Positions 1-12,603 of a DNA stretch of 27,994 bases are shown here, piece by piece. The stretch is from positions 1-27,994 of the IMG/VR virus record IMGVR_UViG_3300020044_004165, one strand, 5' to 3'. The notes below the pieces were generated by a model. That model searched no databases and was not told the origin of the DNA. It saw only the letters and a program-made list of their open reading frames with translations. The translations under genes and the position numbers were made by a program. The stretch comes from a virus. Lineage: Duplodnaviria; Caudoviricetes. Numbering within the stretch: the first letter of the stretch is position 1; each line of letters opens with the position of its first letter.

Positions 1-2
1 CG

Positions 3-923
3 TTGACTGCGGACGAAGAAAAATCCATGTACGACCGCTCCACTGCTCGTGGCAAGGAAGTCTATGGCGACGTGCTTTCCAAAATCAAAGCGGACATTGA
101 GTCTCAGCGTGGGGGAAGCGCGGAGTCTTTGCGCGAAGGGCGTGGTTTGGCTGCGCTTGAAGCTGCTGCTGCTATGTCCCAAGGTCGTGGCTTTGCCCAA
201 GGTCTTGGTCGTGCCGGTGGCGCGTTTGCTGGGTCCTACGGCAAAGCCCTGCGTGCAGATAAAGAGCAAAAACGCGCTCTGTCCGCTATGGACTTGAGTC
301 TGGCTAAGGCTGAAGCTGACCAGCGTATGGGCCTGCACGATAAAGCAGAAGCGCAAATTGCCAAGGCCAACGCCAGCCGCGAGAAAGCGTATACCGCTGG
401 GGTAACCAAAGACAGGGCAATGGCTGATGTGCTGTCTAAGACCGGTCGCCTCGCTATGCCCCCAGCGCCTACTAAGTCGGGTGAGCCTAAGCCTTTGAAG
501 ATTGCCGAGCAGCTCGCTGCGGCGGAGATCGCGCACGAGACCAAGCCTTCAGAAGCTACGCTAGCAAACGTAACCGCGCTGCGCCGTGCTATGGACCGAG
601 CCAGAACTTCTGACTTTGGCCCAACTCGTGCGGGTCTGGGTGAGGCTAATTTGGATGTGAGACTGGGAGATGCCATCAACGCCGCGCAGGCGAAGCTGAA
701 GTTCACACCCGACTACGTCAAAGCTGACCCAGCTAAGAAAGCCCAGATGATGCGGGACGAAGCGGCTAAGGTTCGCGCAAATGCGGGTAAGGACGCAGGC
801 GTAAACAGTAATTCGACATCGGGTACGGGATCGGGTACAGTCGAGGGACTGCCTGCGGGTGCTACCGTAAAAGGCGATAAGGTCTACGACTCAAGTGGCA
901 AACTAATCGGACACGTAAAATGA
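3..923 (+). CDS. Putative internal virion (DNA ejection) protein, 5'-truncated
   Basis: ORF open from the window edge. Ala/Gly/Lys-rich helical sequence with Gly-rich stretches (GRGFAQGLGRAGGAFAG). Its stop overlaps the start of the giant gene (AAAATGA). Confidence 0.6.
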   Translation: MTADEEKSMYDRSTARGKEVYGDVLSKIKADIESQRGGSAESLREGRGLAALEAAAAMSQGRGFAQGLGRAGGAFAGSYGKALRADKEQKRALSAMDLSLAKAEADQRMGLHDKAEAQIAKANASREKAYTAGVTKDRAMADVLSKTGRLAMPPAPTKSGEPKPLKIAEQLAAAEIAHETKPSEATLANVTALRRAMDRARTSDFGPTRAGLGEANLDVRLGDAINAAQAKLKFTPDYVKADPAKKAQMMRDEAAKVRANAGKDAGVNSNSTSGTGSGTVEGLPAGATVKGDKVYDSSGKLIGHVK

Positions 924-3900
924 AATTTGTTCCCCTCTCTGAATCAGCAAAAACCGAAACAGAAGAGGGGGCCAAAACCCTTCGATTTGTACCGTTAGAG
1001 CCCGCTGCCCCGCAAGAAAGTAAGGCTGCGCCTTTTGGCCCAACTTCTGGGCTCGTAGACTTCATAAACAAGCCTACCCCCAAGCCAGAAAGCGTGCTTG
1101 AAGGGCAGCAGATGCCCGGTCCACTGCCGACCGAGGACAAAATGATCCGCCCCGAGTTTGTTTCCGGTTTGGAAGCACAACTCAACGCAATGCCGGAAGC
1201 CAAGCGCAGCGCAGCGCTTGAGAAAATGCTCCAACGCCCAGACGTTTACGGGCGTGCGGCCAAAGTAATCCAAGGTCGGTATGCGGCTAGAGACAAGGTT
1301 CAGCCCACCTCGCTCCAAAACTTGACCGACTTGCGTCTGGAGCAGCAGCAAAAACGGTTTATGCAGCAGGGCATGGAGCCAACGGCTGCCCTCAACCTCG
1401 CACGACAGCAAGCCCAACAGGGTGTTGCCCGCCCCGATCTTCAGCAGATGACCCGGGACGTTGACGGCGAACTCGCCGATCAAGAAGCAGCTCAGATGCG
1501 CGAGAACCTCAAAGACTCCGGGTTCCTCGGGCGCGTGGGTGCGGAAACTAAGGTGCAGTACACACAGGCTGGGCTCGGCTTGATGAACGTCTTCGCCGAC
1601 ATCACCGGCGACGAGCAGATGCAGCGGAACATAGCCAGAACTCGGAATATGGTCGAGGCTGGCCGGGAAGCCATTCCCAAGGGCGACACCATTTTTGAAC
1701 GCTCGGCGCAAGGAGCCATTTCGTCCTTAGCGGGGCAAGCTCCCATGATTGCCCTGAGCGTGCTTACCGGTACGGCAGCTCCCGTTCTCTTGCAGGCGGG
1801 TATTCAGCAGTTCGGTGATTCCTACGGCCAAGCCCGAGCTGCGGGCAAATCCCCAGAAGCCGCCGCTGCGCGTGCTATTCCTATGGCTGCTGCGGAGATT
1901 TTCTTCGAGCGGTTTGGTATGGAGAAGGCACTTGCTGGCCTGACCAAGCACGTATCCAAGTACGGGTACGACTCTATCCCCAAGTACGTTGGCCAAGCAG
2001 TCGCGAAAGAAATCCCAGCCGAGATGGCTACTACTGCTACGCAGTACGGTATCGACATCGTTCCCGGGATTGGCCTGAACAAAAACCCCAGCTTGGTTGG
2101 TCTGTACGAGCAGCTGGAAGAGACACTGCGCCAGACGATCATCCAAGCTGGGGTGCAGGCAGGCACAACTATCGGGGCTGTAAAAGGCGTCCAGAAACTG
2201 TCGAAAGCTCTGCAGGCTAGCGCCCCCAAGTATGAGCGCCCCGATGACACGGGGTACTACCAAGCCCTGCTTGCAGCAAAGGAAAAAGGGTTCTTGGTTT
2301 CCGAGCGCCGCAATCAAATGGTGCCCCCCGGGCAAACTGCTGGAGCCCCATCCACCGATGGTACCCTCACTGATGAGGGTAGCATACCAAAACAAGATCA
2401 GTTGGCTGATCTTACTGCTGAGATCGAGGCCACAGGCATCCCTGCGGACGACGCACGGGCGCAAGCCGAGCAAATGCTCGCCGCTCAGGAAGCTGAAAAG
2501 CGTAAGGCTCTGGCCCCTCGCATCATCGAGTTGACCCGCGAGTTTGTTGATGGCGGTATGGACCCTCAGCAAGCCAACCAAATAGCCATTCAACAAGCCA
2601 CTGAGGAGGCACAAGCAGATGAACAAGCCCAACTCGAAGGTGCTGTCGGTAGCGCACCAACTGTCAGTACCGCAGATCGAACAGGCGCTGGAGTGGCTGG
2701 ACAGCCCGGTGGCGTCACCGCCCCCGGAGGAGCTGGAGTCACTCAGCCAAGTGGAGTGGTTCCAACTGGACAGACTGCTGCAGGCACTGTGGCGGGAGAA
2801 GGCGGGCAGCCCGGTGCATTGAGGATAAAGAAGAACGAAAAAACTGGTGCCGTAACAACTACGTACGCAGTGCAGGACGAGGACGGCAACCCCTCAGAGC
2901 TTAGCATCGTACGAAACGCCGACGGTTCAGTGTTTCGTGTGTTTGACAAAGTCACACGAGATGACGGCAAAACAATGCAGGTTGAGCTGGACAACAGCTA
3001 TGGTCAGGGGGTTGATAACGCAAAGATCATCTCGCAGTCCAACCGTACCCCTATCGAAGCACCCAAGGCCAAGCGTGGCCGACCCGCTGTTCTGACCGAG
3101 GAAGAAAAGCAGCAGCGTGCCGAAGGTAAAAAGCCCGTGCAGGCTGCGAAGGCCAAGGCCGAGCGTTCAATCCTCCGGCTGACAAACAAGCTGGACGAGC
3201 TGGCTACGCTGCCCGATGAAGGTGACTTCGAGACGGACGAAGATTACGAAGCAGCCCTTGCCGACCACCGAGCCGAGCGCCGCGAGACGATCAAGTCTTT
3301 GTTGCAGTTGCAGGCCGATCCCCTGCTTCGGGGTACTAAGGTAGGTGAGCGCGTCAAAGTTGCGCTGGCCCGCCCTGACATCTCCGAGAAGGAAAAAGCT
3401 GATCTCAAAGCAGGTATCGAGGCGCAAAAGCGTGCACAAGCTGCGATCCAAGGTGACCGACCAAGTTCTTCTCGCGTGACCAAGGGCACGCCCGACACTA
3501 CGTTTGGCAAGTTCACCAACGGTGTCCAAGCCCTGAATCACATTATCAAGACGGGCAACGACTTCCAAAAGGCGCTCGGCAAGCGCCTGCGCAGCTTTGT
3601 AACCAACGTGAAGTTTGTGGTTATCGAAGAAGGTCAAGAGCTGCCAGCTCAACTCAAGTCGGCAAAAAACGCTCGCCACTGGGATCGTTCTATTGCGCTA
3701 TACATCGAGAACTACAACACGGGTGACCGTGTCATCTATGTGCGCGGCGCATCCTTTGGCGAGAACCAAGGCGTCAACAACCTGACCATCCTGCACGAGC
3801 TGCTGCACGCGGCCACCAACCGCAAGATTGTTCTGGCTATCGAAGCAATCAAGAAGGGGGTCAGCCTCAACTCGCCGCTGGTGCGTTCTGCAACCGACTT

Positions 3901-6900
3901 GCTCCGCACAATGAACAGTGCCATCAGCACGTTCAACGACCTGTCGGCTAGACGGCAGCTGCCCGAATACATCTCCCTGCTTGCTGACCGTGGCGAGGTC
4001 TTGGAAGACCCCCGCGAGTTCATTGCGTACGGCATGACCGACCCAGAGTTTCAGCAGTTCTTGATGAAGGCCCAAGGCTACGAGGAAGACACTTCGTACT
4101 TCAACCGCTTTGTGCGCGGTATCCGTGAGCTGTTCGGCATGGGTGACGACACCACCAACGCTCTGACCGACTTGATTGTCGTGACCGACACCATTTTGAG
4201 CACCCGTGCCCCTCAGTACCAAGCTCGTGGGGAGCAAGCCAGCAGCACGTTCTTTGGGTTTGGCAAGAAAGAAGAGCCGAAGGCTGATACGCCCATGGCT
4301 GGTACGACGGAGGTCAAGGCTCGCCCCAGTGCCAACGTGCAGCGTCTGGCCAAGATGCTCGGCTCCAAGCTGTACGGCACGCCCAAAGACATCGCTGTGG
4401 TCTCGATCAAAGAGTTGTTCCAAAACTCCTTCGACGCCATCAAGGGCTCGCTGGAGCAAGGGCAGCTGACCAAGGGCAAGGTCGATGTAAAGATTGACGC
4501 TGGCAATCGCTCTATCCGTGTCGTGGACAACGGCCTTGGTATGCCGACCAGCGTGATGGGCAATCAGTTCTTGCAGATTGCTGGTACTGTCAAAGAGACA
4601 AAGCGTGCGTCCGGCGGTCTCGGCGTTGCCAAGATGCTGTTCCTGTTCGAGAACAAAGCCCTTGAGGTTGTGTCGCTGCGCGATGGTGTGATCTCCCGCA
4701 TGGTCACCAACGGTGATGACTTGAAGGCCGCACTGGATGACCCAAGCCGAGCACCAAACATCGAAGTCACTGAAGACCCCGCTGTTGTGCAGCGCTACGT
4801 TGATTCTTTGTTCCCCGATGGCCACGGCACTGCGGTGACTGTGACAATCCCCGATACGTTCACCAACGAATCTACTGGCGAGCAGGAGAAGATCAACTTC
4901 GATGTATGGGACCTCAAGAACGCTCCCGTGTTGGAGTACAGCCCATTGTTTGGCGACATCGACGTAACTGTTGACTACGGGTACGGCCAGAACCCACTGC
5001 CGATCGGTTCAAACTTCCCGACTAACGACTACACCCCCTTTGCAAATGTCAACTTTGCGTGGGGCACTGCGCGTATCTACGTATCCAAAGAGAAAGTGGA
5101 CAACTGGAGGGATAATACCCATGTGCTGTCCAACGGCCTGTGGCAGTTCAACACTGCGATCAAGGATCGTCCCGGCTTTAGCGGCAAGAACATCAAGCGC
5201 ACTTTCTATGTGGATGTGACCCCCGCCGAGAACGTCAGACCAGAGGATGCGGGGTACCCCTTTGACTTGAACCGCCAGAACTTCTCCAAGGCGGCTAAGG
5301 AAGACTTCGGCAAAATCTTCAACTACATCACCGCCATTTACAGCCAGCTCGATCTAGCTTCGGGCGTCAAAAACTTTGGCACGGTGCAGTACGTCAACGC
5401 TGATGGTTCGGTGACTGAGGCAAAAGCACTGGAGCCAACCGCTCCTCCTAGCGATAACGCGTTCACGCTGATCAAGCCCGGCGACCAAGTTGAAGTGCGT
5501 GACGGCGTGCTGTACGTCAACAACCGCGCACTGCCAGAGTTGACCGCTAAAGACTTGGAGAACACCAGCATCCGCATCGACGAGTTGACTATCCCGCAGA
5601 ACGAGATTGACTCGACCAAGGTCATGATCCATGACAATACCGAGACGCAGGTAAGGACTGTGACCGAAGCGGATGCGAAAAAAGCGCTTGATGATCTGGT
5701 GGCAAGTGACCCCGAAAGATACGAGATAGTTGATCTCGGCAACGGGCGCTTTTGGATGAGCGTGTACGGCACCATAAGTGTACACGGCCCCGGCAGGACT
5801 AAGATTGTTGACTATTCTGGCGTCCCCTCAAAAATTTTTGAGTGGGCGACTATGAACGATATACCTGTGCAAGCTCCTACGGGCACGCCTCAGTCTTTGT
5901 CCGACCTTGCACGCGCCAAGTTTGGTGCCGAGCGGGTCAACAAATACTTCGCAGCCATTGGTGAGACGTTTCACTTGCTGCGTGATGCTCTTATCTCCGT
6001 CGATAGTTCATACGCTGATATGTCTACACAGGCTTTCGGCATCAGTATCGACAACGAGTACTACGGTGTCAGCATCATGGTGCCCTTCAAGGGCATGTTC
6101 ATCAACCCGGCAACCACAGCTCTGAGCGATACCCCTGCGCAAATTGCCGTATCCATGATCGGCACGATGATTCACGAGATGGCGCACTTCCGTCAGCGCA
6201 ACCACGGTGGCAGTTTTGCGTCTGAGATGCAGAAGATCGCGACGCTGCTTGACACTCATCCGTCGTTTGATTTACAACAGGCCAAAAAAGACCTGACCAA
6301 AGTCGTCGATGCCAATGATGGCATCTTTATATTCATGAACAAGGAGTTCCGTGATGGAAATCTCAAGCCTCGTGGCAACCGCTTCGCGGACGCTAGCTAC
6401 CAACAAATCGGAGATGAAGGCGCTTCTGAGCCAATGGAAGGCGAACGCGCAGAAGGACAAGGAGGACCCAGCGTACCAGAACAGCTTGGAGCAAGCGCTC
6501 AAAGTACTGGACAAGTCGGCCAGCCTGCCGGAGCTGGTGGCCAAACTCCAGCGGTTGGAAACGCAGTCCGTACCCAGCAACAGCTGAACCGTGCGGTAAA
6601 AGTAGCAAACGCTAAATTTGAAGAGTCCCAGAACGGGCAGGAGTATTCTAAAGCCTTGTCGTTGCTTCAGATGATGCAGGACCCCCGTAAGGTAATCCCG
6701 GCTATCCGTGACCTTTACGCCCGCATGAACCTCGGTGCACGCTCAGCTTTGACTCGCGTGCTGACAAACGACTTCATAGTGGAACTAACCGGGCAAGATG
6801 TCCCCGAGCTGCGCAACACCCACAAGTTGATGCAGCAAATGAGTGGCATGACTGAGACGCTTCTCAAGGGCGCGGGTGATCTGACCAACGACATTTCTCG

Positions 6901-9499
6901 TGCGTTCCGTAAGGACCCAACCCTGCGCGAAAAGCTAGACAAGATCACGCACATGGCTACTCTTGCCGAGTACGACCCAGCGGACAAGTCCCAGACTGTT
7001 CGGAACAAAAACCTCGACGCGCAATACGATGCGCTTGGCCCAGAAGGTCAGCGCATCTACAACCGTATCAAGCGCCACTTTGAAATCTTGTCGAACACCT
7101 TCTCCAAGTTGCTCGATGACCAGATCACACAGTCGGGCCTGCCGATGGCGGAGCAGGCCAACCTGATCAAGAAGATCAGGGCGATGTACGAGACTGGTAG
7201 CAAGATCACTCCCTACTTCCCACTGGTGCGCCGTGGAGATTTTTGGTTGTCGATCGGCACAGGTGAGACTCGCAAGTTCTTCATGTTTGAGAGCATGGGC
7301 GAGCGTGACCGTGCAATGCAAGGGTTTGCCGACGAGAAAGTAAAGCAGAAGCCCGGTGAGTCGGATGCCGCGTTCCAGAAGCGCCGCGACCGCAACTTAC
7401 AAGACCTGCTGGAGTCAGAAAACTTTGTGTACGGCAACGACATCAGTGCCTTGCGCAAAACCACAGTTGGCAACAGCCAGCTTCTGTCCGGCGTGTTTGC
7501 TGAGATTGACAAGACTGGGGTCAAGACTGACTTCACCCCAGAAGCCAAAGAGCAGCTCAAGGATGCGGTGTACCAGCTGTACTTGCAGACAATGCCAGAG
7601 CAGAGTTTCCGCAAGCAGTTCATTCACCGTAAGGGCTTCGCTGGTTTCCGCACTGACTTGCTGCGCAACGTGGCCGACACGACCACCAAGATGGCGACTC
7701 AGCTTTCTCGGATCAAGTACGCCCCTCTGCTGCGCAACTCGTTGTCTCAGGCGCGTGACTCGATCAAGAACCGCCCAATGTACGAGCCCTACGTTGCTAC
7801 CTTCGAGCGGCGTGTGTCTGACGCATTGACGGCGGGTAAGCCATCTTTGGCCGAGAGCATCGCGGCGGGGCTCAACAAGTTCTCGTTCATCTTCTATCTG
7901 GGGGGTATCTCCTCGGCTGTGCTTCAGCCGTTGAGCTTGTTCCAGACTGGCATCCCCGTGCTCACAAAGTATGGTGTCGGTAACGCCTACGCCGAGATGG
8001 GCAACATGCTCAAAGTGTGGCAAGAATATGGCGTGATGAAGAAGAATGCTGACGGTACCTTCTCTTGGGCACCTCCATCTATTGAAAACGTCACCCGCAG
8101 TGGAGACGAGCGCCGCGCTATCAAGGACATGCTGGGCCGTGATCTCACCACTTCCACCTACGCACGCGATGCGCTGGACTACAAGGCTACGCCGACTGAT
8201 GCCATCCCGTCACCCACGGCACAGTTTGGTAAGGATACCGTCAGCGCGTTGGTGCTCGGCGGGTTGATGCACTCGACTGAGCGTATGTCTCGTGAGGCCA
8301 TGTTCCTTGCAGCGTACCGACTGAACCGCAAAGCGGGTCGAGACCATGAGACTTCGGTGGACAACGCTGTCTACGACACCAATGAAGCCCTTGGTAACTA
8401 CGGCCAGTACAACCGCCCCGACTTTATGAAGGGCGCTCCGGGCAGAGTTCTTACGCAGTTCATGATGTACCCTGTGTACATGACATTGTTCTTGGGTAGA
8501 AACTTTGTCGAGATGATCAAACCAATGAACGGGCGCACTCGGTGGGAAGCGTCTAAGAAGTTCTTCGGCACTATGGGGCACACATGGGTGCTCGGCGGCG
8601 CGGTTGGCCTGTGGGGTTTCAGCACAGTCATGGGCTTCCTTGGCGCGATGTGGAACTCCCTCAAGGATGACGAGTGGCCAGAGGATGTGAAGAGCATGAG
8701 CTACGAGTTGTGGTGGCGCACCGTCTGGCTCAAGGAGCAGCTTGGTGGTACTCAAGTTGCTGGATACGATCTCGCCGACGTGGTTGAGCGCGGCCCTGTC
8801 AACGCCATCACAGGTGTGGACATCTCCAGCCGTACGAGCTTGAACAACATGTGGCTGCGCGAAACCAAAGAGACCGCAACCACACGCGAAAGTGCTCTGG
8901 CTCTGGCAGTGGAGAAAGCTGGCCCAACAGCCAACATGATCTTGTCACAGCTCGATGCCTACGATGCGTTCATGCAAGGGGACTACAAGAAGGGTGTCCT
9001 CAAAGCCGCCCCTGCTGGTTTCCGCAACTGGATCAACGCGGCTAACTATTACAAGGAAGGCGCGAAGGACAACAAGGGTGCGGAGATTCTGTCCCGCGAT
9101 GCCTTCACCACGGGTGAACTGATCTTCCAAGCTGTCGGCTTCCGCTCAGACCTGCTTGCGAATACACAGTACGTGACCTTCAAAGTGATCGGCCTTGAGC
9201 AAAAGATTCTGAATGAGCGCACCAAGATCATGAATCAGATTGATCGTGCGTACCGGCAGGGGGACTTCGACGCCTACACCGACTACTACGAGGATATGCA
9301 GAAGTTCAACACCAAGTACCCTACGTACGAGATCACGACCGACAACCTTGTGGACTCGTTGGAGCGCAAGCAGGAGCAGCGTGGCAAGTCTTTCCGGGGC
9401 ATTACGTTGACCGAGAAGAACGTGGGGCCATTTGCAGAGACGTTGCTTCCATCCCGGATTGCGGCAGACAAGCGGGAAGAAAAGAACCGCCAAAAATAA
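920..9499 (+). CDS. Large polyvalent / giant internal virion protein (2859 aa): HExxH metallopeptidase, GHKL ATPase, WLM/YgjP-like peptidase, PLxRFG-like C-terminal region
   Basis: Single 8.6-kb ORF, last gene of the + strand block. Motifs: ILHELLHAA (~3794-3808) with downstream EFIAYG; KELFQNSFDA, VVDNGLGM, GGLGVAK, DGHGTAV (4400-4840); IHEMAHFRQRNHGGSF (~6170-6220); YFPLVRRGDF (~7214-7243); hydrophobic Gly-rich segment near 8585-8655. Confidence 0.85.
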   Translation: MKFVPLSESAKTETEEGAKTLRFVPLEPAAPQESKAAPFGPTSGLVDFINKPTPKPESVLEGQQMPGPLPTEDKMIRPEFVSGLEAQLNAMPEAKRSAALEKMLQRPDVYGRAAKVIQGRYAARDKVQPTSLQNLTDLRLEQQQKRFMQQGMEPTAALNLARQQAQQGVARPDLQQMTRDVDGELADQEAAQMRENLKDSGFLGRVGAETKVQYTQAGLGLMNVFADITGDEQMQRNIARTRNMVEAGREAIPKGDTIFERSAQGAISSLAGQAPMIALSVLTGTAAPVLLQAGIQQFGDSYGQARAAGKSPEAAAARAIPMAAAEIFFERFGMEKALAGLTKHVSKYGYDSIPKYVGQAVAKEIPAEMATTATQYGIDIVPGIGLNKNPSLVGLYEQLEETLRQTIIQAGVQAGTTIGAVKGVQKLSKALQASAPKYERPDDTGYYQALLAAKEKGFLVSERRNQMVPPGQTAGAPSTDGTLTDEGSIPKQDQLADLTAEIEATGIPADDARAQAEQMLAAQEAEKRKALAPRIIELTREFVDGGMDPQQANQIAIQQATEEAQADEQAQLEGAVGSAPTVSTADRTGAGVAGQPGGVTAPGGAGVTQPSGVVPTGQTAAGTVAGEGGQPGALRIKKNEKTGAVTTTYAVQDEDGNPSELSIVRNADGSVFRVFDKVTRDDGKTMQVELDNSYGQGVDNAKIISQSNRTPIEAPKAKRGRPAVLTEEEKQQRAEGKKPVQAAKAKAERSILRLTNKLDELATLPDEGDFETDEDYEAALADHRAERRETIKSLLQLQADPLLRGTKVGERVKVALARPDISEKEKADLKAGIEAQKRAQAAIQGDRPSSSRVTKGTPDTTFGKFTNGVQALNHIIKTGNDFQKALGKRLRSFVTNVKFVVIEEGQELPAQLKSAKNARHWDRSIALYIENYNTGDRVIYVRGASFGENQGVNNLTILHELLHAATNRKIVLAIEAIKKGVSLNSPLVRSATDLLRTMNSAISTFNDLSARRQLPEYISLLADRGEVLEDPREFIAYGMTDPEFQQFLMKAQGYEEDTSYFNRFVRGIRELFGMGDDTTNALTDLIVVTDTILSTRAPQYQARGEQASSTFFGFGKKEEPKADTPMAGTTEVKARPSANVQRLAKMLGSKLYGTPKDIAVVSIKELFQNSFDAIKGSLEQGQLTKGKVDVKIDAGNRSIRVVDNGLGMPTSVMGNQFLQIAGTVKETKRASGGLGVAKMLFLFENKALEVVSLRDGVISRMVTNGDDLKAALDDPSRAPNIEVTEDPAVVQRYVDSLFPDGHGTAVTVTIPDTFTNESTGEQEKINFDVWDLKNAPVLEYSPLFGDIDVTVDYGYGQNPLPIGSNFPTNDYTPFANVNFAWGTARIYVSKEKVDNWRDNTHVLSNGLWQFNTAIKDRPGFSGKNIKRTFYVDVTPAENVRPEDAGYPFDLNRQNFSKAAKEDFGKIFNYITAIYSQLDLASGVKNFGTVQYVNADGSVTEAKALEPTAPPSDNAFTLIKPGDQVEVRDGVLYVNNRALPELTAKDLENTSIRIDELTIPQNEIDSTKVMIHDNTETQVRTVTEADAKKALDDLVASDPERYEIVDLGNGRFWMSVYGTISVHGPGRTKIVDYSGVPSKIFEWATMNDIPVQAPTGTPQSLSDLARAKFGAERVNKYFAAIGETFHLLRDALISVDSSYADMSTQAFGISIDNEYYGVSIMVPFKGMFINPATTALSDTPAQIAVSMIGTMIHEMAHFRQRNHGGSFASEMQKIATLLDTHPSFDLQQAKKDLTKVVDANDGIFIFMNKEFRDGNLKPRGNRFADASYQQIGDEGASEPMEGERAEGQGGPSVPEQLGASAQSTGQVGQPAGAGGQTPAVGNAVRTQQQLNRAVKVANAKFEESQNGQEYSKALSLLQMMQDPRKVIPAIRDLYARMNLGARSALTRVLTNDFIVELTGQDVPELRNTHKLMQQMSGMTETLLKGAGDLTNDISRAFRKDPTLREKLDKITHMATLAEYDPADKSQTVRNKNLDAQYDALGPEGQRIYNRIKRHFEILSNTFSKLLDDQITQSGLPMAEQANLIKKIRAMYETGSKITPYFPLVRRGDFWLSIGTGETRKFFMFESMGERDRAMQGFADEKVKQKPGESDAAFQKRRDRNLQDLLESENFVYGNDISALRKTTVGNSQLLSGVFAEIDKTGVKTDFTPEAKEQLKDAVYQLYLQTMPEQSFRKQFIHRKGFAGFRTDLLRNVADTTTKMATQLSRIKYAPLLRNSLSQARDSIKNRPMYEPYVATFERRVSDALTAGKPSLAESIAAGLNKFSFIFYLGGISSAVLQPLSLFQTGIPVLTKYGVGNAYAEMGNMLKVWQEYGVMKKNADGTFSWAPPSIENVTRSGDERRAIKDMLGRDLTTSTYARDALDYKATPTDAIPSPTAQFGKDTVSALVLGGLMHSTERMSREAMFLAAYRLNRKAGRDHETSVDNAVYDTNEALGNYGQYNRPDFMKGAPGRVLTQFMMYPVYMTLFLGRNFVEMIKPMNGRTRWEASKKFFGTMGHTWVLGGAVGLWGFSTVMGFLGAMWNSLKDDEWPEDVKSMSYELWWRTVWLKEQLGGTQVAGYDLADVVERGPVNAITGVDISSRTSLNNMWLRETKETATTRESALALAVEKAGPTANMILSQLDAYDAFMQGDYKKGVLKAAPAGFRNWINAANYYKEGAKDNKGAEILSRDAFTTGELIFQAVGFRSDLLANTQYVTFKVIGLEQKILNERTKIMNQIDRAYRQGDFDAYTDYYEDMQKFNTKYPTYEITTDNLVDSLERKQEQRGKSFRGITLTEKNVGPFAETLLPSRIAADKREEKNRQK
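2619..2822 (+). CDS. Putative overprinted small helical protein (67 aa) in the +1 frame of the giant gene
   Basis: GAGGAGG at 2603-2609, 9 nt before the ATG at 2619. Product looks amphipathic (VPQIEQALEWLD...LSQVEWFQLDRLLQALWREK). ORF limits match a G/A/P/T/Q linker in the main frame. Confidence 0.6.
   Translation: MNKPNSKVLSVAHQLSVPQIEQALEWLDSPVASPPPEELESLSQVEWFQLDRLLQALWREKAGSPVH
6354..6587 (+). CDS. Putative overprinted small helical protein (77 aa) in the +1 frame of the giant gene
   Basis: AAGGAG at 6341-6346, 7 nt before the ATG at 6354 (GTG at 6351 is in frame). Amphipathic helices (EMKALLSQWKANA, YQNSLEQALKVLD, LPELVAKLQRL). Coincides with a G/Q/P/E linker in the main frame. Confidence 0.6.
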   Translation: MEISSLVATASRTLATNKSEMKALLSQWKANAQKDKEDPAYQNSLEQALKVLDKSASLPELVAKLQRLETQSVPSNS

Positions 9500-9527
9500 A
9501 AAAACCCCCCGACGCAAATCGGGGGGT
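9498..9527 (-). terminator. Rho-independent terminator between the convergent blocks (U-tract on the - strand)
   Basis: ACCCCCCGA-cgcaaa-TCGGGGGGT hairpin (9504-9527) with an A-run at 9498-9504. Confidence 0.85.
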
Positions 9528-9584
9528 AAATCAACTCACAACCAAAGAGAAATGCTGGTCCAACTCCAGCGGCTCCAGTGTAAT

Positions 9585-9779
9585 TTAGACGCGCCAAACG
9601 CGCAAGCCTTTGACACCTTCCTCGACCACCACTTTGCTGATTGTTTTGATCTTCAAGCGTTTGGTGACCACGGCCAGAGTTTTTCTGGCCGCTTCATGGT
9701 CGATGCAGGGCACAAAGAAAGAGTACCCCTTTCGGAATTTCCTCCAGTCAATCTGGAACGATACCGTTTCGATTTTCAT
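9585..9779 (-). CDS. Small hypothetical phage protein
   Basis: 64 aa, overlaps the primase 3' end, ends in GLRVWRV and contains SFFVPC. Protein-like composition. Confidence 0.75.
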   Translation of the reverse strand: MKIETVSFQIDWRKFRKGYSFFVPCIDHEAARKTLAVVTKRLKIKTISKVVVEEGVKGLRVWRV

Positions 9780-12603
9780 CCGCGCTCAGTTGTATGTCCA
9801 CTTGCAAAAACTCTGAAGACGAGGCGTCGAACTTCAGCACTCGAACGGCGGGGGACACCATCTTCATGCCTTTGGACATTCGTTTGTTCATGGTCTCGGT
9901 GTAGCAACCAAGTTGCTGGAGCTCCTTGAGAGTGCCCTTATAGTTGATCTGCTGACGTACGCAGAAGTCTTTGAACGCCTTGGCCGCGATGTACAGCTCT
10001 TTGGTGTCGGGCTCGTAGCGAATCATCAACTCACCACGGGGCTCCAGCAGTGGGAGCGCCGACAAATTGCTCCGGGCATCCACTTCACCGTTGACCACCA
10101 ATGCGTTGGAGATGTGCGCGTTGATAAACTCGCCGATCGCGGTAACCGGCGATGCCTGTGGGGGCTTCACTTCGTTTCGCATCTCGCTGAGCATACGCTT
10201 GAGCCATTCATAGACGGCCTTCATGTCGAAGTCGTGCAAGCCAAGGCTCTTGGAGATCAGGCCCCCAACGATGTTGCAAGCGGCAACACCCGACCAAAAA
10301 CGCTCACGCTGCGTGAACTGAACTTCCTTGTCGATACGGGCCTGAACTTGGCGCATCAGATCGACTGCTTCTTCTTTGTTGTTCACAAGCCACTGTGCGT
10401 AGACTTCCATTGCGTGGCCGTAGTTCTCCCGCAGTTGGTGGTCAAACATATGTTTGCCGTGCTCCATCGAGATGATGTTGTTGTGGTCCACCCTGTACTC
10501 AAGCAGACGCATTGATTCACCGTCTGGCGAACTCTTGGCCACACCGAGCTTCTCGTAAAAGCTGGCGTTAGATGAGCACAGGCTGATGCCTTGCCATTTG
10601 GTGTTGTTGACGCGCAGTTCGTTGGTCGAGCCCTTCATCTTCTCTTTGCCCCGGCCTTGGCTGATGCTGTACGCCAGATCGGAGAACTCCATGCCGCTCA
10701 TGTTTGTAATCTCGTCAATCGTGTTGGCGAGGTTGTTCATTACACCGAGCCTATGAATCTTGGCGTTGAACGTGTCCTTGAACATGGAAGTCAGCTCTTT
10801 GGGCTCACCGCTTACGCTGTTGCACATGTACAGGGCCGTAGACTTGCCCGAGCCTGACTCCGGGGAAATGATGTTGATGATTGCGCCTTCCAAGCCGGTG
10901 AACTTGAGCAGTGGAGAGCCGAACGCTGTGAGCGCGGCAAATGCGTGGGGCTCCATCCCCGGCAGGGCGTAGAGGTTAAACACTTCCTTCCACTTATCGA
11001 ATTCGCCCTTGACGTGAATCTTCTCTGCGGCGTCTTTGTTGGTGCTGGAGGGTGGGCTGTAGAACACACCGTCCTTGGTGATCTCGCGGTCGCCGAGGAT
11101 AAACTTGCTGTCTCCGTCGGCCCATCCAAATTGGGTTCTCATGGTTTCTGCTTTCTTTACATACTGCAAATTCTTGATGAACGACACAACGAACGAAGCA
11201 AGGTTTTCGTATTGCTTGTGGTGCGCCATGACCCCGTTGTGGGCCAACTGCTTGCGCAGATCATCTTTTGCAGAAATGGATGCTGTAGAAATACTGAACT
11301 CGCGCACACCATCGTGCGGCAGGTGCAGTCGGAACAACGCAACTTCCCCAACCTCGGGGTCTTTCATGCGCTTGACCACGTACAAGTCGTGCTCGTACAC
11401 CAACGATGGCTCGTCCTCTTCTTCACTGGCTCGGCGGTAGATGCCACCTTTTGCGCCGCGGAAGAATGGGTACGGGTACTCGGGTATGTGGTAGTGTGTT
11501 TCTTCGCCGGTTTCCTCGTCAGCAACCACAAATTCGTTGTCTTCTGGGTCGGCTTCCTCAATCTCCATGCCGAGCACGATCGGTGATTTGATCTTGCCTT
11601 TGTGTGGGCATCCATCACACCCAGTCGGGTTCAGCTTTTCAAACGTAGCGCAGTGGTGCGGCCCACCCTTGGAGCGAATCTGCGCGAGTTTCTGATCAAC
11701 TTGGGCGGGGTCGTATTCCGGGTGCCCTTTGGACATCTTGTGGGCAGAGGCATCACCATCGGAGCAAAACGCCGCAATCGACAATGCAGAGCGCCACAGC
11801 GGTTCTTCGACAGAGGCTTGGTTCTCAAAGCAGTGCAGCAGCTGCTGGCAACCGTCACCCTCGGCGGACCGAAGCATAATGGTTTTGAACTTTTTGACTT
11901 TGTTGCCCATCAGGGCCTCCATCATCGGGCTCATCGAGCGCGGGATGAAGTCGGGTATATCGTCTTTGGGTTCAGGCGCACCGAGCAGCTCTTTGAACTG
12001 TTCGTACGTCAGGCGTTGTGTTTTTTCGTTGAGGACTGTTACCGCCTTGGGTTCGTCCTGTTTGAAATTGAATGTGCCCGGGATGCGCAGAACACGCGAT
12101 GCCTCAAACACAGATGCGTCAACGATCAGCCCCTGCTCGGCACACAACTCACGTAGTCGGTTAGCAAGAGGTTCCCAGTCGCGGCGCGAGACCACTTCTT
12201 CGAGTAGCCAGTATGCGTGAATCCCGTAACCGGAACTCACCAGAATTGGTCGTGGCAAGCCAGCGGCCATGCAGAACTTTTTGAACTCAGCAAGCCCAAT
12301 CTCTTGGGTCAGGTAGCCTTTGATAACGCCCTTCTCATCTGGGACACCCTTGGTGGGGCCGCAGTCAATGTCCATCCACAGTGCGCGGAAGTACGTGGCG
12401 TTCTCATGAGTTCGGTTATTCAAAGGGCCGTACTTGGCGCATCCAAAATACGCATCCACTTTACGGCGAACAAACTCCTCGGCTACCTCATTGACTTCTT
12501 CTCTAGTATCTACAAAGCGTTGATCTGGGTAACGACCGTATCCGAAAACACAGTACCGCCCCTCCGTGGGCAACACGGTGTCGAGTAGGTCAAAACTGGA
12601 CAT
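9748..12603 (-). CDS. DNA primase-helicase (AEP/RepB-like primase + DUF927 P-loop helicase)
   Basis: AEP motifs WMDIDC, SSGYGIHAYW and RVLRIPGT. Cys/His cluster HCATFEKLNPTGCDGCPH. Walker A ESGSGKST and Walker B TIDEIT. Confidence 0.9.
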   Translation of the reverse strand: MSSFDLLDTVLPTEGRYCVFGYGRYPDQRFVDTREEVNEVAEEFVRRKVDAYFGCAKYGPLNNRTHENATYFRALWMDIDCGPTKGVPDEKGVIKGYLTQEIGLAEFKKFCMAAGLPRPILVSSGYGIHAYWLLEEVVSRRDWEPLANRLRELCAEQGLIVDASVFEASRVLRIPGTFNFKQDEPKAVTVLNEKTQRLTYEQFKELLGAPEPKDDIPDFIPRSMSPMMEALMGNKVKKFKTIMLRSAEGDGCQQLLHCFENQASVEEPLWRSALSIAAFCSDGDASAHKMSKGHPEYDPAQVDQKLAQIRSKGGPHHCATFEKLNPTGCDGCPHKGKIKSPIVLGMEIEEADPEDNEFVVADEETGEETHYHIPEYPYPFFRGAKGGIYRRASEEEDEPSLVYEHDLYVVKRMKDPEVGEVALFRLHLPHDGVREFSISTASISAKDDLRKQLAHNGVMAHHKQYENLASFVVSFIKNLQYVKKAETMRTQFGWADGDSKFILGDREITKDGVFYSPPSSTNKDAAEKIHVKGEFDKWKEVFNLYALPGMEPHAFAALTAFGSPLLKFTGLEGAIINIISPESGSGKSTALYMCNSVSGEPKELTSMFKDTFNAKIHRLGVMNNLANTIDEITNMSGMEFSDLAYSISQGRGKEKMKGSTNELRVNNTKWQGISLCSSNASFYEKLGVAKSSPDGESMRLLEYRVDHNNIISMEHGKHMFDHQLRENYGHAMEVYAQWLVNNKEEAVDLMRQVQARIDKEVQFTQRERFWSGVAACNIVGGLISKSLGLHDFDMKAVYEWLKRMLSEMRNEVKPPQASPVTAIGEFINAHISNALVVNGEVDARSNLSALPLLEPRGELMIRYEPDTKELYIAAKAFKDFCVRQQINYKGTLKELQQLGCYTETMNKRMSKGMKMVSPAVRVLKFDASSSEFLQVDIQLSADENRNGIVPD

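Follow-up and report, generated by a model that had tools for sequence, protein, structure and literature searches.

A small gene hidden in the +1 reading frame of a giant phage gene is strictly linked, as far as sequence comparison reaches, to one mobile enzyme module of the enclosing protein, a GHKL ATPase joined to a zincin metallopeptidase, and structure prediction places its product on the active-site helix of that zincin. The gene was found in a 27,994-nucleotide stretch of a tailed-phage genome (Duplodnaviria; Caudoviricetes; IMG/VR record IMGVR_UViG_3300020044_004165, positions 1 to 27,994), which is referred to below, in its whole length, as the window. A first-pass annotation of the window had pointed to two open reading frames (ORFs), here ORF-A and ORF-B, each led by a Shine-Dalgarno (SD) sequence and nested in the giant gene so that they flank a peptidase-GHKL-peptidase region. 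The coordinates and the +1 frame have been borne out, and selection acts on both nested frames; the spacing given for the second ORF, about 45 codons past the second HExxH motif, needs correction to 59–60 codons after the first His of that motif and 55 after its last. The same annotation proposed that the enzymes are bracketed by partners and that each domain is exchanged with its own. This reading proved half right, because ORF-B follows the module whereas ORF-A follows the backbone of the giant protein, so that the idea stands for the pair of ORF-B and module and falls for ORF-A.

The features that carry the argument are these:

920 to 9499, plus strand: giant polyvalent gene, DarB-like, with LPD39 and phrog_10089; 2,859 codons, 2,859 amino acids
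2603 to 2609, plus strand: SD sequence GAGGAGG of ORF-A, read from the sequence; SD-like sites also in relatives
2619 to 2822, plus strand: ORF-A, +1 frame, 67 amino acids; ATG at 2619, SD spacing 9
3485 to 4207, plus strand: first zincin-like metallopeptidase (MPTase) domain; HExxH at 3794–3808 (amino acid 959)
4337 to 5374, plus strand: GHKL ATPase plus S5 transducer domain (Pfam, Foldseek), the 5′ half of the mobile module
5897 to 6352, plus strand: the second peptidase, also zincin-like, with His 1752, 1756 and 1762 in HExxHxxxxxH; the 3′ half of the mobile module and predicted ORF-B binding site
6341 to 6346, plus strand: SD sequence AAGGAG of ORF-B, within the last helix of the zincin domain
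6354 to 6587, plus strand: ORF-B, +1 frame, 77 amino acids (78 from GTG); ATG at 6354, SD spacing 7; alternative GTG at 6351
6740 to 9424, plus strand: LPD39/DarB-like C-terminal backbone (family matches), with which ORF-A co-occurs

ORF-B travels with the GHKL-zincin module

Hosts were sampled by the module, independently of ORF-B, from the best 80 of 176 viral loci together with 13 genome loci. These yielded 75 distinct ORFs longer than 900 amino acids, of which three with the GHKL domain only were dropped and 72 kept; the 71 viral hosts among them comprise 70 from IMG/VR and the window. ORF-B is present in all 71 viral hosts, and the one remaining host (L143) has a different ORF at the site. 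Its offset from the first His of HExxH is 58–65 codons in 66 of the 71, and an SD-like motif precedes it in 59. Because most module hosts had entered the ORF-B profile, a cross-validation was run with a profile built from the 37 closest hosts; this profile put the B site first among alternative-frame segments in 34/34 distant hosts (36–49% module identity), with a few weak scores among them. A second sample, drawn by backbone (best 80 of 241 loci, giving 63 distinct hosts and, after 15 with an open 5′ end were dropped, 48), contains ORF-B in 11/11 hosts with the module and in 0/37 without it. Among ORF-B loci from metagenomes, largely repeats of the viral contigs, an HExxH motif lies 59–62 codons upstream in 10/10.

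The pattern holds across positions and backbones. The module stands 3′ of the first peptidase in the window and 5′ of it in other hosts, lies at residue 3,334 of a 5,546-residue protein in L215, and is joined to five C-terminal families unrelated by BLAST (51, 6, 4, 3 and 2 hosts; in one more the protein stops shortly past ORF-B; 67 hosts in all). ORF-B diverges fast together with its module, sharing 19–90% identity with the window's copy, and the GHKL-zincin enzyme counts 430 representatives at 50% clustering (E-values up to 1e-30). These comparisons establish a strict linkage of ORF-B to the module and give it a hallmark of effector-immunity pairs, a partner gene directly downstream of the enzyme that moves with it. 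Neither the first peptidase nor the GHKL domain showed a dedicated partner.

Both nested frames evolve as genes

Over ORF-A and ORF-B the main frame reads as a linker rich in Gly, Ala, Gln and Pro, fast-changing over ORF-B, and its third-position A content is 0.30–0.38, a level found elsewhere only in the first 50 codons. The profiles of the two ORFs gave 209 matches in 143 partly redundant sources, and 208 of these sit in the +1 frame of an ORF of at least 500 amino acids, the exception lying at a contig edge. At a DNA divergence of about 0.3, nested codon positions 1/2/3 have substitution rates of 0.35/0.24/0.46 in ORF-A (72 sequences) and 0.30/0.26/0.48 in ORF-B (24 sequences), positions 1 and 2 being about equal in the closest ORF-B pairs. 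Since nested position 2 changes least, the main-frame wobble position is the slowest or near-slowest site over both ORFs; in the two peptidase domains, which served as a control, it is the fastest (0.31/0.23/0.58 and 0.29/0.20/0.57). On the same DNA and at the same divergence, identity is higher in the nested than in the main frame (59 versus 37% for ORF-A, 58 versus 39% for ORF-B).

Stop-free stretches of at least 45 codons are common in the +1 frame of the giant gene (18), and it could be argued from this that both ORFs are shadows of main-frame conservation and not genes. The nested identities and the slow main wobble speak against such an origin, as does clustering: 183 SD-led alternative-frame ORFs in 91 distinct hosts form clusters of more than three only for ORF-A (80), ORF-B (26) and a third family (9). 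The chance rate of an SD-led +1 ORF of at least 55 amino acids is 82 in 6,266 26-codon windows (1.3%). Clustering, substitution pattern and cross-validation together effectively refute the shadow explanation. ORF-A and ORF-B each have their own start signal, a conserved open frame and selection in the nested frame, the marks of overlapping genes, and judged by these they are genes under protein-level selection. Other +1 open stretches of the giant gene (at 2232, 4206, 4971, 5907 and 7356) were dropped, as none formed a cluster of more than three hosts under the SD filter.

Neither product has a named relative in the collections searched. As single proteins both lacked matches in Pfam and PHROGs, and their alignment members gave scattered weak matches only; the ESM Atlas returned nothing usable for ORF-A and scores all under 0.8 for ORF-B; and tblastn with ORF-A, ORF-B and the module found no match in 50,697 annotated phage records.

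A predicted complex at the zincin active site

The module model (predicted local distance difference test score, pLDDT, 83.5) comprises three parts: a GHKL ATPase and its S5 transducer, a variable insert, and a zincin domain. The GHKL domain matches Pfam HATPase_c at an E-value of 7e-4, under the curated cut-off, and the GHKL and S5 fold matches HSP90, GyrB, MutL and MORC in Foldseek (E ~1e-11). In its ExxxN, DxGxG and glycine-rich lid motifs, the residues E26, N30, D64, G66, G68, G93 and G96 are invariant in the 71 sequences, as are H613, E614, H617 and H623 of the zincin (H-E-x-x-H-x5-H), a domain modelled as strands followed by a helix. The second HExxH domain is on these grounds a zincin metallopeptidase of putative activity.

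Two side observations concern the module. The stretch 5640–5880 (module residues ~435–515) is the variable insert, modelled as a small alpha/beta domain and absent or replaced in relatives. Searched against BFVD, the module model found matches of full-length size among uncharacterised Hokovirus and Yasminevirus proteins of 700–760 residues (E ~1e-12, template modelling [TM] score ~0.4), ranking above rIIA and HSP90.

The ORF-B product was modelled as four helices (pLDDT 87.5). A fold search returned generic helical matches only, the best of which, to eIF2B helices (Z 8.3, root-mean-square deviation 2.5, 74 aligned residues), stays below the level at which a match between helical bundles is informative, and the best match among PDB sequences had an E-value of 0.18. 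For the complex prediction the entire 672-residue module was folded with ORF-B, and the binding site was therefore freely chosen by the model. The predicted complex scored 0.80, compared with 0.00 for the best of three controls; the mark used for this score is reached by 116/157 solved and 2/215 mismatched pairs, counts that are approximate where own alignments are used. The runs agreed in at least 88% of contacts, with a partner pLDDT of at least 82 and ~90–106 contacts. All confident contacts fall on the zincin and none on the GHKL domain; they involve residues 1713–1716, 1733–1756 and 1765–1789 of the giant protein, including the zinc-ligand residues His1752 and His1756. Ser1745 and Gly1748 on the module side, and Ala23, Gln27 and Trp28 of ORF-B, belong to the predicted interface. 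The contacted helix face is rich in small residues, with Gly at module position 609 in 62/71 sequences and Ser or Gly at position 606 in 55/71. A memorised complex is not indicated, because all 60 PDB sequence matches to the module among the matches listed (of 127) cover the GHKL part and ORF-B has none below an E-value of 0.18. Mutual information between ORF-B and module columns (71 rows, ~46 effective) places 4 interface pairs in the top 20 where 1.1 are expected, and 10 in the top 200 where 11.2 are expected. The prediction that the ORF-B product packs on the active-site helix of the zincin draws on the complex model and not on this covariation.

ORF-A follows the backbone

The distribution of ORF-A is of another kind. 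In the module sample, taking hosts with a closed 5′ end and setting three 3′-open hosts aside, it is present in 43/44 hosts with the window's backbone and in 0/13 with other backbones, where a divergent ORF-A could have escaped detection. In the backbone sample it is present in 47/48 hosts and is retained in 36 of the 37 that lack the module. ORF-A shows a pattern of helix, Pro-rich loop and helix, an invariant Trp and a conserved C-terminal end; it has no named relative and no Pfam match. It marks the entry to the variable payload region, no conserved partner domain lies upstream of it, and in the window it ends about 220 codons 5′ of the first peptidase domain. Directly 3′ of it, positions 2820–3055 (amino acids 635–712) hold a small insert with no match among the compared hosts, and this slot varies freely from relative to relative.

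A full bracket, in which ORF-A too would be cognate to an enzyme domain, be it the first peptidase or another, draws on the joint presence of ORF-A and first peptidase in 45/48 backbone-sampled hosts and on TnpV-like nested ORFs that precede a methylase domain in two cultured phages, which make an upstream placement of a partner possible. It is nevertheless rather improbable: ORF-A is kept without the first peptidase in 9 module-sampled and 2 backbone-sampled hosts, the distance between the two ranges from 147 to more than 1,200 codons, presence of ORF-A tracks the backbone, and no fixed linkage to any one enzyme domain was found. The claim of the first-pass annotation that ORF-A is an enzyme partner is accordingly not supported. 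Of the checks which that annotation had proposed, a survey of co-occurrence with specific enzyme domains favoured ORF-B (71/71 with the module, 0/37 without) and went against ORF-A, and complex modelling of ORF-B with the module predicted binding at the zincin site. Its distribution makes ORF-A a hidden gene in its own right that belongs to the backbone clade; our best guess is that it likely encodes a folding, assembly or packaging helper of the ejection protein, or another late factor.

The enclosing protein

The giant protein matches LPD39 in Pfam (E 1e-10, above cut-off) and the DarB-like family phrog_10089 in PHROGs (E 2e-56), and over the 750 residues at its C-terminus it shares ~25% identity with DarB-like proteins from cultured phages (35 records). 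Its first HExxH domain is homologous to internal core proteins of the phiKMV type, e.g. phiKMV gp37. With 2,859 residues, LPD39, two HExxH domains and a GHKL domain, its domain content makes it a polyvalent protein as Iyer et al. use the term (PMC5512222), and LPD39, the DarB-like C-terminus and the resemblance of the HExxH domain to internal core proteins make it likely that it is an injected internal virion protein. Multi-domain giants with zincin MPTase domains and LPD39 are known in phages and conjugative elements, and autoproteolysis or host targeting has been proposed for the MPTases of polyvalent proteins in the passages of that paper considered here (PMC5512222).

Elsewhere in the window, the minus strand encodes a DUF927 protein, an SNF2 helicase, a PD-(D/E)XK nuclease, a family A DNA polymerase and a DUF2201 protein. 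A G+C hairpin at 9504–9527, with a T-run on the minus strand and an A-run before it, separates the giant gene from these convergent replication genes and is likely a bidirectional terminator.

What the nested partner may do

ORF-B probably encodes a nested four-helix partner of the zincin that acts as its cognate inhibitor while the giant protein is being synthesised, a reading that we favour with moderate confidence from co-occurrence and modelling. Internal initiation on the same late mRNA would supply free ORF-B product alongside the polyprotein; this product would hold the zincin quiet during synthesis, sparing host targets or preventing premature self-cleavage of the polyprotein; and its release, or its being left behind, would let the enzyme act after packaging or injection. 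Since ORF-B is plain linker when read in the main frame, enzyme and partner could move as one in-frame unit, and it is as such a unit that they would have been inserted into different giant genes.

Several observations weigh against the inhibitor reading. The output of the complex model consists of contacts, and blockage of the cleft is not part of it; injection of the giant protein, likely as it is, is argued from homology and from Iyer et al. (PMC5512222); and the co-occurrence counts are not independent events, because the hosts are related. Three stand-alone copies of the module, one of them (L144) in a Chlamydiae metagenome-assembled genome, stop 57–72 codons past HExxH and have no partner ORF that passes the filter, so the enzyme can exist without a partner. 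Six further copies (L074, L075, L083, L143, L145 and L147) carry a helical +1 ORF at +54 to +56, for which comparison with ORF-B by hhalign (P 0.055 and 0.012, for the type of L074, L143 and L145) is too weak to claim homology. Module position 609 is Asp or Glu in all three partner-less stand-alone copies, and Asn, Glu or Asp in the four checked copies of the other-ORF type; as the latter share these residues, position 609 marks the ORF-B clade and not the presence of a partner.

The stand-alone genes without nested partner are:

L144, 9686–11806
L146, 9770–11611
L148, 9971–11572

Those of L144 and L146 have housekeeping genes as neighbours and are extended N-terminally by ~80–105 residues, possibly a secretion or targeting signal. 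In L145 (15–2126) and L147 (33–2277), both on AT-rich contigs, the module is nearly stand-alone with a 59-residue +1 ORF in its 3′ tail; that of L145 is nearly its own gene (703 amino acids), ending about ten codons past the nested ORF.

The same co-occurrence and the same predicted complex would be expected if ORF-B were an obligate structural subunit, chaperone, activator or substrate adaptor that occupies the same surface, supports activity and is perhaps packaged and injected. The size of the interface, which reaches past the zinc site to residues 1765–1789, and the retention of ORF-B in every module-bearing viral host fit such a role as well. We regard it as unlikely, if a serious contender, since the partner-less stand-alone copies retain HExxH, the zincin domain is modelled at pLDDT >80 without ORF-B, and two zinc ligands, together with the strand preceding the active-site helix, are among the predicted contacts. 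Immunity proteins of polymorphic toxins diverge quickly with their toxins, and the fast joint divergence of ORF-B and module could in the same way reflect immunity against the enzymes of related superinfecting phages, a form of kin exclusion, in place of self-protection during synthesis. ORF-B lies, however, within a late structural gene, and there is no sign of its separate early expression, because promoter-like sites in positions 1–10000 number only 5 against 3.0 ± 1.5 in shuffled sequence, a chance level; kin exclusion is accordingly very unlikely.

An SD-like sequence just upstream can stimulate +1 ribosomal frameshifting, as in RF2, and the A and B frames might then be entered by frameshifting to yield truncated polyproteins that have A or B at their end, B then forming a covalent cap. 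SD-like sequences do precede the nested frames, the +1 frame is open well 5′ of the start in some hosts, and the start codon is unclear in 2/71. Set against this are an ATG or GTG at initiation spacing in 69/71 hosts (a count favoured by the picking of ORF-B starts within 15 codons of the profile start), the origin of the starts from five main-frame codons that all end in T, compared with a 49% background, and a +1 frame that in the window opens just 4–5 codons 5′ of the start. Frameshifting is on this evidence barely credible, and inhibition by a separately initiated ORF-B product remains the reading that we prefer.

Extended beyond this one module, the inhibitor reading would portray giant injected phage proteins as self-contained cassettes, each enzyme domain being accompanied by an inhibitor gene that is overprinted in the linker next to it, so that effector-immunity pairs could pass in frame from one ejection protein to an unrelated one, and many 'disordered linkers' in polyvalent proteins would be shadows of unannotated cognate regulators. 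It is enticing to speculate along these lines, though we are divided over this generalisation and lean slightly towards doubt. If it is true, the GHKL-zincin module and ORF-B would be a worked example with a predicted active-site complex, and the TnpV-like ORFs before the methylase-helicase another.

Nested frames in cultured phages and other hosts

Unannotated SD-led +1 ORFs are present in the DarB-like genes of four of the five cultured phages fetched, none of them matching ORF-A or ORF-B, and annotation thus misses nested genes in cultured phages as well. Those of Klebsiella phage SopranoGao and Erwinia phage PEp14 that precede the methylase-helicase of the DarB-like gene are homologous to each other.

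L236, 7291–7614, Klebsiella phage SopranoGao: unannotated TnpV-like +1 ORF (weak Pfam match, E 4e-3, below cut-off)
L239, 6064–6378, Erwinia phage PEp14: unannotated TnpV-like +1 ORF (weak Pfam match, E 4e-4, below cut-off)
L239, 3826–4053; L237, 13165–13365 (PBC5); L238, 9256–9642 (Skulduggery): further SD-led +1 ORFs of 67–129 amino acids, no Pfam family at cut-off

The third SD-led +1 family, absent from the window, consists of ORFs of 35–50 amino acids rich in Lys, Pro and Gln in the payload region, often just before a conserved domain that precedes the first peptidase; it may be a gene or a compositional shadow.

Third +1 family, by host amino acid: L092 733, L093 778, L095 749, L099 833, L063 1166, L035 1031, L066 1032, L037 447, L008 427
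Third +1 family, also in: L176, L178, L180, L198, L205

Helical-looking +1 ORFs were seen in hosts of 4,200–5,500 amino acids, at amino acids 527–577 and 2259–2355 of L134 and L215, 4–65 of L232 and 3029–3088 of L225; the extra ORFs of L215 and L232 appear homologous by eye.

Comparison with known systems

The embedded spanin genes Rz/Rz1 are the familiar case of a +1 nested gene whose product binds that of the enclosing gene, Rz1 being a lipoprotein and both being small lysis genes. The pair is annotated in phage PEp14. There the enclosing gene is a small lysis gene; here it spans 8.6 kb, and the nested gene is part of a single enzyme module that can be exchanged.

The polyvalent proteins of Iyer et al. 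(PMC5512222) share with the giant protein its multi-domain make-up, zincin MPTases and LPD39. The main text of that paper contains 'overlap', 'GHKL' and 'TnpV' 0 times, and the passages of it considered here mention no nested partner gene. T4 rIIA-like GHKL proteins combine an N-terminal GHKL domain with a variable C-terminal domain in phage conflict (PMC7824862, in part), as the module does; the rIIA-like match covers the GHKL part only (Foldseek TM ~0.3), and in the window a zincin takes the C-terminal place and a giant protein encloses the module.

A parallel to an inhibitor role is offered by protealysin and emfourin of Serratia proteamaculans, a metalloprotease and a small co-encoded binder of its active-site region that are discussed as an effector-immunity pair; according to the portion of that report drawn on here, both are encoded in one operon and emfourin attaches 1:1 at the active-site region (PMC9505478). 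They are two adjacent ordinary bacterial genes and the protease is of family M4, whereas in the window one gene holds both enzyme and partner, the latter hidden in a linker, and the zincin forms a fusion with a GHKL ATPase; no homology of ORF-B to emfourin was found. In genetic organisation a likeness is found in the ShiLan insertion in actinophage DNA methylases, which, in the parts of its description used here, is mobile, read through in the host frame and equipped with a hidden out-of-frame protein with its own start, as is the case here (PMC11855218). The hidden protein of ShiLan is a selfish HNH homing endonuclease (PMC11855218), in contrast to ORF-B, which is predicted to bind the neighbouring domain; ORF-B is all-helical, with no nuclease motif and no Pfam family at cut-off, and ORF-A has no HNH motif.

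In the open-licence literature, screened by listings and the openings of abstracts, no description of nested partner genes in polyvalent or DarB-like genes was found. Each ingredient is known; put together, with a module that is mobile and an active-site complex that is predicted, they appear to be undescribed. The arrangement bears on how a multi-enzyme injected protein can be made without poisoning the phage's own factory or being cut early, and on how single domains move between giant injected proteins, and it adds a new family of small proteins with a predicted site on a widespread, unstudied GHKL-zincin enzyme, whose activity and control thereby become directly testable.

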